Part shown: positions 8,192 to 11,957 of the stretch, one piece after another
Layout: the number at the start of each line of letters is the position of its first letter
Numbering within the stretch: the stretch's first letter is position 1
Assembly (NCBI GenBank): GCA_022800815.1
Contig: JAAWRC010000011.1
Location: 13,587-77,586 of the forward strand
Source of the DNA: Lachnospiraceae bacterium
GTDB lineage: Bacteria; Bacillota; Clostridia; Lachnospirales; Lachnospiraceae
DNA length: 64,000 bases
Direction: 5' to 3'
Translations under genes and position numbers: made by a program
Notes under the pieces: model-generated
Told to the model about the DNA's origin: nothing
Database searches by the model: none
Seen by the model: only the letters and a program-made list of their open reading frames with translations

Positions 8192-8542
8192 GCCTGTTCC
8201 TCCTTCAAATTTGGTCTTTCCGCTGTTACTATTCCTTCACGGTTGCCTGCCGCAATCTCTGCGATCAGGAACTGTCCATTTCTTTCATCTCCTGAGCCTC
8301 CCTCCATAAATCGTGCTGCAATCTTTCGATTACTTCTTGGTTGCCTGCCCGGTAATTTTTTATTTTGCCGAGGAAAACTGCACTTCGATAGAATCAGAAA
8401 CCTTGCACGGATACCAGCCGATGGCATGAATCTTCAATCCATAATTTTTACCGTTCTTTATAAAAAGACCTTGAGAAGCACCGAAGTCCGTCCAGCATTA
8501 TTTCCTTTTTTCGGACATTTTGATATGATCTTACAGAAAAAA

Positions 8543-8800
8543 CTATCCATATAAAAAAGAAAAATCAGGAGGGATTTCATCATGACAGAAGAAGTTTACG
8601 AAAGCCTGATAAGCCGTCCAGAACGTTTCTTTAAACTCTATCGTGAAATAAAGTTTGTTTTTTGTCACTTTAAACGTATATGGATTTGCTTTCAGCAGTT
8701 TCATTTCCCTTGCCGTATACTCCTTCATCACATCCTCTCCAATCTGCCATTTATTGTATCAGATGTCCTTTGGCTTGGAATCATCCAAATGTCCACTTTA
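8543..8800 (-). pseudogene. Truncated IS3-like OrfA (HTH) with probable IS left end
   Basis: MKEYTAREMKLLKANPYTFKVTKNKLYFTIEFKETFWTAYQA resembles the N-terminus of clostridial IS3-family OrfA, then breaks off near 8602. TAAAGTGGAC (8800-8791) resembles an IS end. No transposase follows. Confidence 0.55.
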
Positions 8801-9082
8801 CACTTCTTACACCCTTCACTGCTGTCTACTTTCAGGGATTTCATACCTTTTTTGTATGTCTACTTTTCGGGTACTTCCCCTTTCTCTATCTGTCCACAGT
8901 CTGGTAAGCAAGCCATTCTCCTATTTGTCCATTTCTTTGGATTTATCCCTTTTACAAAGTGTCTACGGTCTGGGATTCCTTCTGTTATTTCAGGCCTAGC
9001 ATTCATATAGTATTTCCCCTGGCGGTAACTAACATTTCAGGCAATCCCTTTCTCTTGCCGTGTCCACCTTATAGGGTACATT
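8790..9082. repeat. Degenerate ~34-bp-period array of TGTCYAC-led units
   Basis: Motif starts at 8790, 8823, 8857, 8891, 8926 (TGTCCAT) and 8960, with spacings 33/34/34/35/34. A further copy sits at 9061. Confidence 0.8.
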
Positions 9083-9389
9083 ATATTTGGAGGCGATCCA
9101 GCGGGAGGAGGCGATTCTGTGGGATGAGGCTCATTACTTTATTCCGGAGACTGTGTTGCGTTCAGCGTGTGCGCCCTTGCTGAAAACGGTATCATTTCCG
9201 GCGATCAAGAGGGAACTCCACGAGACAGGGATACTTTCCTGCAACGATGGAAAACGCATGAATTTTACAACGAAAAAGTTATTGACGGATGTGTACGGCC
9301 AAAGCTTTCGGGCGAGATTTTTAAAAATCAAAAGGGAATTTTTCCAGACGGAGGTTTCGTTTGGATTAGAAGAAAGGAGAGGATTGTGA
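9075..9389 (+). pseudogene. C-terminal remnant of a larger element protein (possibly primase/replication-associated)
   Basis: Protein-like ~100-aa frame with no RBS, closed upstream by TAG at 9072. Its stop overlaps the ATPase start (TGATG), showing it was a translated gene. Confidence 0.45.
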
Positions 9390-10420
9390 TGTATGTAGGA
9401 CGATTCATTGGAAACTGGTGTTATACGGCCGAAAAATCCCCTAATAGCTCCGTATGTATCACCGGATTATCCGGGAGCGGAAAAACGTGCCGGCTGAACC
9501 AGATCGAGCTGGAGGAAGTGAGACTGGGGGCTACGGTTCTGGTCTTTGACCTTCACAGAAGCCATGCGGAAGATCAGGTTTTTGGCGAAATACGAGAGCG
9601 ATATTTGCCGTATGTAAATCGGATTTCAGTCCTCCGGGACGGACTGGCGCTGCCTTTGTTTACGCCGCTCCGTGATGCTTATGGGCGGGAGGAACCCTAT
9701 GTTCACCTGGTAAATTCGGCGGTCCAGGCGCTGGGCGGTACGTTCCGGTCAGCGTCACGTCAGATCGGTGCATTGCGGTCAGCGGTTGAACAGGTGGTGA
9801 AATCGCCTGACGGACGGTATAACCCGGCGGAGGCTTTGTCCTTCTTTCTGGCTGCGCAGGAGACTCAGGCTGCGGATGCCGTCTATGAGAAGTTGTGGAC
9901 GGTGCTCAACTGTAATGCACTGCGTCCGGGTACAAAAAAGATAGAAAACGGAAAGATTAATATCCTGGATTTTTCGGAGGGGGATATGCTCACGCAGAGT
10001 GTCCTCGCAAAATTGACGCTGGCCTGTATCTGGAGGTATGCGCTGTACTCGAGGACCATGGAGGAAAAGCCGAATATTGTTTTGGCACTGGATGAGTTTC
10101 AGCACCTGTCCTTAAAGCCGGATTCCACCCTTTGCCATCTGCTCAGGGAGGGACGGAAGTTCGGGATCAGCTTGTTGCTGGCGACTCAGACGCTGGAGGC
10201 ATTTTCTAAGGAGGCGAAGACCCTGTTAAATCAGACCGCCACAAGGCTGTATTTCCGGCCGACACTTGAAGAAATCCGGAAAATAGCGAAGGGGATCGAC
10301 CAGGAGAAGGTGACGGAATGGGTGAAGATTTTGCAGAGGCTCCAGGTCGGAGAATCACTGGCGGTTGGCAATTTATGTATTGGCGGACGGGATGTCATTC
10401 GCCCGGTCGTGTTGAAATGA
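9389..10420 (+). CDS. HerA/VirB4/TraG-like P-loop ATPase
   Basis: Walker A GLSGSGKT, Walker B LALDEFQ, REGRKFG..LLLATQ motif; RBS AAAGGAG. Confidence 0.85.
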   Translation: MYVGRFIGNWCYTAEKSPNSSVCITGLSGSGKTCRLNQIELEEVRLGATVLVFDLHRSHAEDQVFGEIRERYLPYVNRISVLRDGLALPLFTPLRDAYGREEPYVHLVNSAVQALGGTFRSASRQIGALRSAVEQVVKSPDGRYNPAEALSFFLAAQETQAADAVYEKLWTVLNCNALRPGTKKIENGKINILDFSEGDMLTQSVLAKLTLACIWRYALYSRTMEEKPNIVLALDEFQHLSLKPDSTLCHLLREGRKFGISLLLATQTLEAFSKEAKTLLNQTATRLYFRPTLEEIRKIAKGIDQEKVTEWVKILQRLQVGESLAVGNLCIGGRDVIRPVVLK

Positions 10421-10452: not shown

Positions 10453-10653
10453 ATGAAAATCGAAGTACCCGTTTGGCAAAAGTATACCTTATCAATTGAA
10501 GAAGCTGCAGAATATTTCCGAATCGGTCAGAAGCGTCTGCGTTGTCTTGCGGATGAAAATCCGGAGGCGGACTTCCTGCTGTTCATTGGGAATCGCGTGC
10601 AGATCAAACGGAAGTTGTTTGAAAAATATATTGATGCCGCAAACGTTGTTTAA
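10453..10653 (+). CDS. xis: Tn916-type excisionase
   Basis: VPVWQKYTLSIEEAAEYFRIG..KLR pattern; RBS AGGAG; lies directly upstream of the integrase. Confidence 0.9.
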   Translation: MKIEVPVWQKYTLSIEEAAEYFRIGQKRLRCLADENPEADFLLFIGNRVQIKRKLFEKYIDAANVV

Positions 10654-10760
10654 GTGAAAAATGAATAGCATAAGAAAATCTGCATGACACAGAGGCCCCG
10701 ATATGGTACACTGGAAGAGTCATGTCGGGGCCTTTCCAAAATGGAAAGGAGTTCGATATT

Positions 10761-11957
10761 TTGTCTGGAAAGAGAAAGGATAAGAGAGGACGAGTTTTAC
10801 GCAATGGGGAAATCCAGAAGTCCGATGGCCGATACCGTTATAAGTATACGGACGCTTTTGGTGAGGTACGGTATGTTTACTCCTGGAGATTGGATAAAAA
10901 TGACCGTATCCCGGTAGGGAAAAAGTGGGAGCCCTCTTTGCGGGAAAAGGAGAAGCAGATCACGGCGGACATGTTTGACCGAATCGTGCCGGAGGGCGGG
11001 GGACTGACCGTCATAGAGCTGGTAAAGAAGTATGTGTCTTTGAAAACCGGAGTGCGTCCCACGACAGAAATGGGATATCAGACTGTCATCAATCTGTTGG
11101 AGCGGGAACGCTTTGGGTGCCAGCGGATTGACAAGGTGAAGCTTTCGGATGCCAAGGCATGGCTGATACAGCTCCAAAAGGATGGGAGAGGATTCAGCTC
11201 GATCCGTACCATCCGGGGCGTACTGCGGCCGGCCTTCCAGATGGCGGTGGATGACGACCTGATCCGCAAGAATCCATTTGGCTTTGAGCTGGCCTCGGTG
11301 ATCTATAACGACAGCGTCACGAGGGAGGCGCTTACCAGAGATCAGGAGCGGAGATTTTTAAAGTTTGTAAAAGAGGATCCACATTTTAAGCGGTATTATG
11401 ACGGGATTTACATTCTTTTTCATACGGGGCTTCGGATTTCTGAATTCGTGGGGCTGACAAAGGCGGATATTGACTTTAAGAACAGAAAGATCCATGTGGA
11501 ACGTCAGTTACAGCGGTATGTAAGGATTGGGTACTGTGTGATTGGGCCGAAGACAGAAAGCGGAGTGCGGCAGGTTCCCATGACCGAAGAGGTGGCAGAA
11601 TGTTTCCGCCGGATCCTGAAAGAGCGGAAGGATCCGAAGGTGGAGCCGATGATTGACGGCCACACAGGATTTTTGTATCTGGATAAAAACGGAATGCCCA
11701 TGGTGGCCTTGCACTGGGAAAAGTATTTTCAGCACATCTGCCAGAAATACAACAGCATTTATAAGCTGCAGATGCCAAGGGTCACTCCCCATGTATGCCG
11801 CCATACCTTCTGCAGCAGGATGGCAGCGGCCAGGATGAATCCCAAGACGCTGCAGTACATCATGGGACATGCGGATATCGGTGTCACGCTGAACACCTAT
11901 ACACATTTTGAATTTGAGGAAATCAGTGAAGAGATGTACAGGGTGTCGGGCGAGTAG
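10761..11957 (+). CDS. int: Tn916-family tyrosine integrase
   Basis: TTG start after GAAAGGAG. N-terminal arm-binding domain KRKDKRGRVLRNGE; catalytic TGLRISE, PKT, HVCRH, GH, TYTH all intact. Confidence 0.95.
   Translation: MSGKRKDKRGRVLRNGEIQKSDGRYRYKYTDAFGEVRYVYSWRLDKNDRIPVGKKWEPSLREKEKQITADMFDRIVPEGGGLTVIELVKKYVSLKTGVRPTTEMGYQTVINLLERERFGCQRIDKVKLSDAKAWLIQLQKDGRGFSSIRTIRGVLRPAFQMAVDDDLIRKNPFGFELASVIYNDSVTREALTRDQERRFLKFVKEDPHFKRYYDGIYILFHTGLRISEFVGLTKADIDFKNRKIHVERQLQRYVRIGYCVIGPKTESGVRQVPMTEEVAECFRRILKERKDPKVEPMIDGHTGFLYLDKNGMPMVALHWEKYFQHICQKYNSIYKLQMPRVTPHVCRHTFCSRMAAARMNPKTLQYIMGHADIGVTLNTYTHFEFEEISEEMYRVSGE

Follow-up and report, generated by a model that had tools for sequence, protein, structure and literature searches.

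What is a row of short, evenly spaced repeats doing between the remains of two broken genes, one of them from an integrative element? The question arises in a 64-kb stretch of a Lachnospiraceae bacterium genome (contig JAAWRC010000011.1; hereafter the window, meaning all 64,000 nucleotides), where the heptamer TGTCYAC recurs about every 34 bp from position 8790 onwards. An annotation made from the DNA letters of the window, which we call the sequence-only reading, had proposed that this array is a replication origin or a recombination-protein array of the neighbouring element. Comparison with related genomes points elsewhere. By homology, the tract that holds the array is the truncated left end of an insertion sequence (IS) of the IS3 family, and the array is probably a docking track for the OrfA and OrfAB proteins of that IS.

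A phased array of TGTCYAC repeats

Exact TGTCYAC (TGTCCAC or TGTCTAC) is found at 8790, 8823, 8857, 8891, 8960 and 9061, with start-to-start intervals along the array of 33, 34, 34, 35 and 34 bp and then 101 bp, which is three periods. The sequence-only reading had counted seven units; its positions and spacing hold, but the exact sites number six, the one at 8926 being TGTCCAT, with a single mismatch. Its second motif, GGGATT or GGGTAC 12-14 nt downstream, is present as it said, and its figure of about three helical turns per period is approximately right, 34 bp corresponding to ~3.2 turns. The unit also has a finer structure, with three conserved blocks ~11.3 bp apart.

TGTCYAC is enriched in the window as a whole (24 matches on both strands against 9.5 expected). 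In the shuffle test that the sequence-only reading had named, run here as 20,000 dinucleotide-preserving shuffles of 8700-9100, the array is significant: no shuffle held more than three matches, against the six observed. Tandem Repeats Finder did not report the array, as conservation covers only about half of the 34 bp in each unit and the units are less than 70% alike. The array is nonetheless real and non-random, and chance is excluded.

Homology identifies the tract as the end of an insertion sequence

Read on the minus strand, the tract 8604-9085 is recognizable from its relatives as a 482-bp fossil, the truncated left end of an IS3-family insertion sequence. A mouse-gut Lachnospiraceae metagenome-assembled genome (MAG) carries two intact copies of 1,974 bp, L017 and L018, and from 9085 to 8604 the window shares 92.9% identity with their left end. 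A DNA search of related genomes also returned a 73%-identical stretch in G030, again part of an intact copy, in which the leader stands upstream of an intact 141-aa OrfA (HTH_Tnp_2) and a 322-aa rve-type OrfB. In the window, the first ~40 residues of a minus-strand open reading frame (ORF) at 8543-8731 match PF20310 HTH_Tnp_2 (E 4.6e-6, profile positions 4-43 of 131), and this orfA remnant can be aligned with intact 141-aa OrfA proteins. The remainder of orfA, orfB and the right end are missing from the fossil, which originated by insertion and then deletion. It has no cognate transposase in its present genome, where neither a second copy of the tract nor an intact relative of orfA was found. 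Searching plasmids with the tract by blastn gave no match, and a search of plasmids with an element of the short-leader class described below gave no named match.

The array is placed precisely within this end. The subterminal site of the left terminal inverted repeat (IRL) is GTACCC-N6-GTGGACA and contains the 9061 unit. Left ends of relatives begin 5'-TATAATGTACCCTATAAGGTGGACA, and the right end carries the inverted counterpart TGTCCTTGACAAGGGGTACAGTTTA-3', its repeat (IRR) reading GTACCC-N6-AAGGACA when inverted. In the orientation of the element, the 34-bp unit is AAAGG - N5 - (A)ATCCC or GTACCC - N5 - RTRGACA. We scanned both strands of 13 complete elements for the bipartite pattern [AT][AC]CC-N5-7-N[AG]GACA, and found IRL and array on the same strand and IRR on the opposite strand, with 3 off-target matches in ~47 kb of scanned strand. 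With those exceptions the motif is confined to the two ends and the array, and the units therefore repeat, in direct orientation within the element, the subterminal part of the inverted repeat but not its tip. The right end has a single site, ~40 bp from the orfB stop, and no array. The sequence-only reading had placed an IS end resembling the motif beside the array. The IS end is there, but the two are not neighbours: the array is itself the IS end, since the terminal inverted repeat includes the 9061 unit, and the remaining units copy that repeat further inside the element.

This placement bears directly on the headline of the sequence-only reading, an iteron-type replication origin of the neighbouring integrative element, and on the related possibility of a partition site. 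Such a reading has in its favour direct phased repeats that stand beside an ATPase, an excisionase and an integrase. The array, however, lies inside the terminal repeats of an IS, and its repeats travel with that IS and not with the integrative element: the tract falls within the IS boundaries, and IS copies at unrelated places in other genomes match it at 93% identity. No initiator (Rep) gene is found nearby, and the tract occurs once in the window's genome. The sequence-only reading had proposed to look for the array in related integrative elements with the intact neighbouring gene; in all four such elements with an intact gene set the array is absent, and none gave a blastn match to the tract. 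We find an origin or partition site scarcely credible. The other half of the proposal, a recombination-protein array, fits the evidence insofar as the repeats are like the phased sites of transposon ends, but not as a part of the integrative element. Arm-type sites for a Tn916-type integrase were also considered and rejected, as related integrative elements lack the motif.

Intact relatives place the element in the IS3 family

For the family as a whole, 80 loci with OrfA relatives were taken from genome contigs. The OrfB of one intact relative (L005:8167-9135) scores 256.8 bits with the NCBIfam model NF033516 (IS3 family transposase), whose cutoff is 160, and has the domains rve, rve_2, rve_3 and HTH_21. 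Its gene lies in the -1 frame relative to orfA. An A7-8 slippery run inside the conserved LKKI motif of OrfA takes the form TAAAAAAAATT in 24 of 26 loci, and a -1 shift at this run yields a predicted OrfAB of 444-503 aa in 21 of the 26. Directly outside the ends, 3-bp target duplications flank 22 of the 35 copies with both flanks readable, among them L006, L016, L018, L064, L054, L058, L068, L070 and L079-L082; 12 of the 35 lack them. In one Treponema ruminis copy (L069), a direct repeat of ~15 bp, ATTGCTAACGCGAAG, is found at the flanks instead of 3 bp.

The conserved ends are 5'-TATAATGTACCC ... GGGGTACAGTTTA-3', with TA at both tips and TG/CA 5 bp inside. The tips of the clade therefore differ from the terminal 5'-TG ... 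CA-3' that is used as an IS3 criterion. The IRL of IS2 also ends in TA-3' (PMC3219604), and we read the TA tips, the one formal departure, as variation within the family and not as grounds for exclusion. The transposase model, the frameshift plan, the target duplication and the organisation of the ends together assign the element to the IS3 family.

OrfA itself was modelled with a pLDDT of 82. The predicted structure has an N-terminal helical/beta-hairpin region that looks DNA-binding, a linker and a long C-terminal helix (residues 104-140), and this helix is consistent with oligomerisation.

Phased left ends recur among the relatives in two main forms

The 80 loci were screened for left-end sites; a left end was readable in ~70, and most of these show phased sites. 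A short-leader class has a leader of ~150 bp with 3 sites spaced 32 and 34 bp apart, and includes copies from Enterococcus, Treponema ruminis, Kineothrix and many Lachnospiraceae. The long-leader class, to which the window's element belongs, has 7-9 sites at ~34 bp spacing in a leader of 357-395 bp. More distant members carry 2-7 sites at 31-58 bp spacing in leaders of 156-315 bp. In a tree of OrfA the long-leader class is strongly clustered, with weak support for a single clade, and it may have one origin. L017/L018 are ~190 bp longer than other long-leader elements, at 1,974 bp versus ~1,783 bp.

Short-leader relatives (loci L033-L073, e.g. L054:1260-1350, L040, L043, L050 and L062) are inserted in periodic GAAGGNATAGAACAAGG-type DNA, always in one orientation. 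The target DNA encodes G-I/L-E-K/Q-G repeats at the end of a gene, and at least two such repeats are present in 14 of 30 short-leader left flanks, as against 0 of 22 long-leader ones. The target gene matched no Pfam family, and in NCBIfam only sub-threshold Rpn-family models (TIGR01784). The target repeats are like the element's own AAGAAGAAGG block, which suggests that the target is chosen by the same DNA-binding domain.

Positions and phasing are held while spacers diverge

In most of 24 long-leader elements the sites fall 19, 120, 154, 189, 223, 257 and 290/291 bp from the tip. The OrfA proteins of these elements are down to 59% identical, and the sequence between sites has freely diverged. 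One-base shifts in spacing are offset in the next interval (35 then 33; 36 then 32), and larger insertions and deletions come in approximately whole-unit steps (L006 and L023, +34 bp; L021, about -30 bp). Information content averages 1.49 bits in motif columns versus 0.86 in the other columns of the array. The strongest period of the conservation profile is 11.5 bp, at a power reached in none of 3,000 permutations, and reflects the three conserved blocks per unit, which are about one helical turn apart and so share roughly one face of the DNA.

This pattern is hard to square with a neutral minisatellite, in which copies of the inverted repeat would have spread by replication slippage and persisted without function. 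Some features do fit such a history, as unit number depends on the clade (3 vs 7-9), L006 shows a recent 34-bp duplication, and relatives without an array are viable. Neutral repeats, however, are expected to lose register and to decay evenly, whereas here the positions have outlasted spacers diverged beyond recognition, conservation is limited to three short blocks per unit with their 11.5-bp recurrence, and single-base spacing changes are made good in the following unit. We judge a neutral origin of this pattern to be unlikely.

The same phasing raises the possibility that a host protein, whether nucleoid-associated or regulatory, binds the units in place of the element's own proteins. Tracts bound by architectural proteins, too, typically show phased A-rich and GG blocks along one helical face, and occupation of the units by the element's proteins is itself a prediction. 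Yet the relatives' hosts comprise Lachnospiraceae, Selenomonadaceae, Enterococcus, Treponema and an actinomycete MAG, and the motif travels with the element across all of them. It is also the motif of both inverted repeats, which are bound by transposase in IS3-family elements (PMC7780238). A host protein as the intended reader of the array is in our view very unlikely.

A proposed docking track for OrfA and OrfAB

Elements of the IS3 family transpose through a figure-of-eight and a circle, whose abutted ends form a strong junction promoter. At each end, the catalytic domain acts on the tip and the N-terminal domain binds the subterminal part. The ends are bipartite, and an N-terminal fragment of IS911 OrfAB protects the subterminal part only (PMC7780238). 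Since the N-terminal DNA-binding domain binds the part of which the units are copies, the units are candidate docking sites for OrfA and/or OrfAB. We propose, with a probability of roughly 0.7, that the array is a docking track for these proteins in the non-coding leader of an IS3-family element. The sequences compared show which element this is, how its end is laid out, and that the sites are conserved and phased; the binding, the promoter activities and the regulatory logic described below are what we infer.

The array is framed by two predicted promoters. A TTGACA lies 14 nt from the right tip and is invariant in 14 elements, and the left tip is TATAAT. The 14 nt and a 3-bp spacer equal to the target duplication give a promoter spacing of 17 bp, so that abutted ends would form a circle-junction promoter, TTGACA-N17-TATAAT, pointing into the array. 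In IS2, the TA-3' end of IRL supplies the -10, the spacer has to be 17 bp long and the resident promoter belongs to the extended -10 type (PMC3219604). The predicted resident promoter of the present element is conserved as a region in most long-leader relatives. The promoter spacer just upstream of its extended -10 holds a half-site, AAGGACAT (8763-8770), which recurs identically in the right inverted repeat. A promoter and terminator scan of the window gave nothing above shuffle expectation.

The track could work as follows. After copy-out, abutment of the circle ends would create the consensus junction promoter, with TTGACA from the right end and TATAAT from the left tip. Transcription from it would cross the entire array before reaching orfA. 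Newly made OrfA and OrfAB would then fill the array, loading several protomers beside the left end. A filled array would mark the left end as unlike the right end, which has a single site, and would throttle both the junction promoter and the predicted weak resident promoter, which begins immediately behind the last unit.

A transcript of this kind would have the array as its 5' leader, and its purine-rich modules might act as RNA, by binding protein or by controlling the translation or stability of orfA. The predicted junction promoter would indeed transcribe the whole array; as a single strand, the leader RNA has a marginally more stable fold than its shuffles (z -1.8), and a 4-bp stem in the 100-nt module next to IRL is kept by compensatory change in three lineages. 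Against this, the sense strand is rich in purines and has few opportunities to pair, the first 134 nt have a weak consensus fold (-6 kcal/mol) and a covariation term of +0.27 kcal/mol, which is no bonus, and an Rfam search of 8200-9500 gave a chance-level hit only. At the DNA level the conserved blocks correspond to both inverted repeats, of which the right one follows orfB at the 3' end, and the predicted resident promoter lies downstream of the array, which would leave the array outside the orfA mRNA in the integrated state. We consider a role as RNA quite unlikely.

Several observations weigh against a docking track for OrfA and OrfAB. For every member of the family, protein binding is a point that we infer, and the invariance of the GACA core across the family makes co-variation of protein and site unreadable. 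A structural comparison of the OrfA model with the PDB gave nothing significant (best E 0.55), which leaves the DNA-binding fold of OrfA unclassified. Terminal and internal sites are not quite alike: the distance from CCC to GACA is 6 in the terminal repeats and mostly 5 in the internal units, and when a 28-nt matrix is built from the internal units, the terminal repeats are missing from its best-scoring hits, in part because at IRL the upstream block of the matrix extends beyond the element. The copy number of units varies, as would also be expected from pure slippage, and two adjacent units of L006 are almost identical and so represent a fresh tandem duplication of 34 bp. ISBce14 and ISClte1 function without an array, which is therefore not essential to the chemistry. 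Finally, two scans of metagenome contigs for a right-end/left-end junction found no IRR-spacer-IRL with a full left end.

In two metagenome contigs (L096:3485-3518 and L097:1091-1125), a right end of this IS type is followed by 2-3 bp, a 12-nt sequence like the left tip (TAAACTGTACCC and TAAAATGTACCC) and then unrelated DNA. These sites could be remnants of abutted-end junctions, or insertions beside end-like sequences.

A bolder version of the docking-track proposal takes in the whole clade. One transposase module would read the phased code AAAGG / TCCC / GACA and polymerise along it, the array serving as a cis loading strip for end asymmetry and feedback. The same reading of AAGG-type DNA would steer short-leader members into their targets in one orientation, and the expansion from 3 to 7-9 sites would have come with loss of this target preference. 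We offer it tentatively, and think that it probably claims too much.

In a widespread gut-Firmicutes clade of the otherwise well-studied IS3 family, then, the left end is made up of phased sites that resemble the terminal repeat, placed between a textbook-perfect predicted junction promoter and a predicted resident promoter. The clade offers a simple, testable system for how copy-out/paste-in elements make their ends unequal and for how the burst of transposase is shut down after circle formation, with natural variants of 0, 3 and 7-9 sites available for comparison.

Anatomy of the left end and its surroundings

The features of the fossil and of the two genes that border it are listed in Table 1. 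The outer limit of the element is sharp: between-copy similarity begins exactly at TATAATG in 22 of the 24 long-leader left ends, the others being L022 (TAAACTG) and L027 (TAAAATG). The module between IRL and the first internal unit shows the highest conservation of the 24-leader alignment, and its first period resembles a decayed unit (AAAGGGATTGCC..ATGTTAG).

The module also holds two GCTAGG motifs ~24 nt apart (alignment columns 58-61 and 82-85), which can form a CTAG:CTAG mini-stem. In three lineages they vary in a complementary manner, as CCAG/CTGG, CTGG/CCAG and CCGG/CCGG. Judged from the alignment, this is the change expected of a 4-bp stem or a palindromic binding site, and not of two direct repeats.

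Table 1. Coordinates of the left-end fossil, its parts and the bordering gene remnants in the window
Feature	Coordinates	Strand	Basis or position
IS3-family fossil (by homology): left inverted repeat, ~357-bp non-coding leader, first ~40 codons of orfA	8604..9085	-	homology to intact copies
Left terminal inverted repeat (IRL), minus-strand TATAAT GTACCC TATAAG GTGGACA	9061..9085	-	tip at 9085
Conserved ~100-bp module between IRL and first internal unit, exactly three periods	8967..9060	-	24-leader alignment
Array unit 1, core GTAGACA, preceded by GGAATCCC AGACC	8960..8966	-	position 120 from tip
Array unit 2, core ATGGACA (plus strand TGTCCAT, one mismatch)	8926..8932	-	position 154
Array unit 3, core GTGGACA	8891..8897	-	position 189
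Array unit 4, core GTAGACA, preceded by AAAGGGGAAGTACCC GAAAA	8857..8863	-	position 223
Array unit 5, core GTAGACA, preceded by AAAGGTATGAAATCCC TGAAA	8823..8829	-	position 257
Array unit 6, core GTGGACA, last full unit	8790..8796	-	position 290
Predicted resident orfA promoter, extended -10 TGATACAAT (8753-8761)	8753..8770	-	read from sequence
orfA remnant, ATG at 8728, MKEYTAREMKLLKANPYTFKVTKNKLYFTIEFKETFWTAYQA, then fused out of the element	8604..8728	-	PF20310 HTH_Tnp_2
Head of excisionase-like HTH gene, 8-9 codons (MTEEVYESL), joined to the IS fossil	8582..8609	+	G001 comparison
Decapitated gene, C-terminal 100 residues of a ~373-aa protein of Tn916-like integrative elements	9087..9389	+	homology to L091

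The inner break lies at ~8604-8609, inside orfA after ...FWTAYQA, and the joint runs through the microhomology AGCCTGA (8603-8609). On its far side, 309 bp (8304-8612) are 99.7% identical to G001:C20:54-362, on a contig from another, congeneric species. The excisionase-like gene, whose match to HTH_17 is weak and below threshold, is intact in G001, where it continues TTPEELSEILAVGKNTAYRLLK; the window keeps only its first codons.

At the outer border, the sequence-only reading had recognized a decapitated gene, and this is borne out: the surviving tail is 56% identical to residues 263-358 of the protein encoded at L091:3919-5040. A search for this tail in 151 genomes of the same family returned only the window's own copy, and the intact form was located through the neighbours of the ATPase. 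Downstream follow the ATPase (9389-10420), an Xis homologue (10453-10641; tblastn E 5e-15) and a Tn916-type integrase (10722-11957), the neighbouring genes being assigned from the gene order of related integrative elements and a Pfam scan. Directly at the IS tip, where the surviving tail of the decapitated gene starts, an 18-bp tandem repeat GGAGGCGATCCAGCGGGA spans 9089-9130 (2.3 copies, 83% matches); the L091 protein has no counterpart at the same place.

What the window holds is a scar: a Tn916-like integrative element has lost the head of one gene, and a dead IS end marks the place. To annotate the tract as an origin or a regulatory region of the integrative element would be a mistake.

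Comparison with known systems

The clade is closest in plan to IS2/IS911/IS150-type elements. It shares with them OrfA and an OrfAB made by -1 frameshift on an A-run (predicted here) with an rve DDE domain, bipartite inverted repeats with a subterminal binding part, 3-bp target duplications, and a right-end -35 and left-tip -10 that would give a junction promoter with 17-bp spacing. With the IRL of IS2 it further shares TA-3' ends and a weak extended -10 resident promoter, again predicted here. As described, these elements have a short leader and a single binding site at each end, whereas the clade has 3-9 direct phased subterminal copies over 150-395 bp on the left and one on the right, and both of its ends are TA-3', with the usual TG/CA 5 bp inside.

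The closest named relatives are ISBce14 (Bacillus) and ISClte1 (Clostridium), at 47-51% OrfB identity, together with an unnamed element of Clostridium estertheticum. ISBce14 and ISClte1 have the inverted-repeat type of the clade (TAAAATGTACCCTATAGAATAGACA ... TGTCCTTGACAAAGGGTACATTTTA) and its gene plan but no array, and their leader is ~85-105 bp. The C. estertheticum element likewise shares the repeat type and lacks an array. In ISBce14, ISClte1 and the C. estertheticum relative (L087:~670-760, L088:~610-712 and L089:~660-810), the left repeat is followed by its own inverted copy (GTACCCTATAGAATAGACA ... TGTCTATTCTATAGGGTA), forming a long hairpin in the place that direct repeats occupy in the array-bearing clade.

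Plasmid iterons, such as the 22-bp repeats of the R6K gamma origin, are likewise direct, phased and protein-sized. Unlike them, the array has a 34-bp period, comes with no initiator gene, lies inside a transposable element and is absent from related copies of the host element.

Our literature search returned no description of such arrays in IS3-family elements; ISfinder was outside its scope and may hold an entry. Arrays of subterminal sites are well known in other transposon families, and for the IS3 family they are apparently undescribed in the sources searched. The IS21 family, Tn7 (TnsB sites), phage Mu (L1-L3 and R1-R3) and Tn402/Tn5053 carry several copies of subterminal transposase sites, unequal at the two ends, and multi-site ends of this kind are thought to build an asymmetric nucleoprotein complex. 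As in those elements, the internal repeats of the clade copy what is here the putative binding part of the terminal repeat. Those systems, however, belong to other transposase lineages and pathways and have sites at both ends with 20-25 bp spacing, whereas the clade has its array at the left end only, with a 34-bp period and three sub-blocks per unit, between two predicted promoters.

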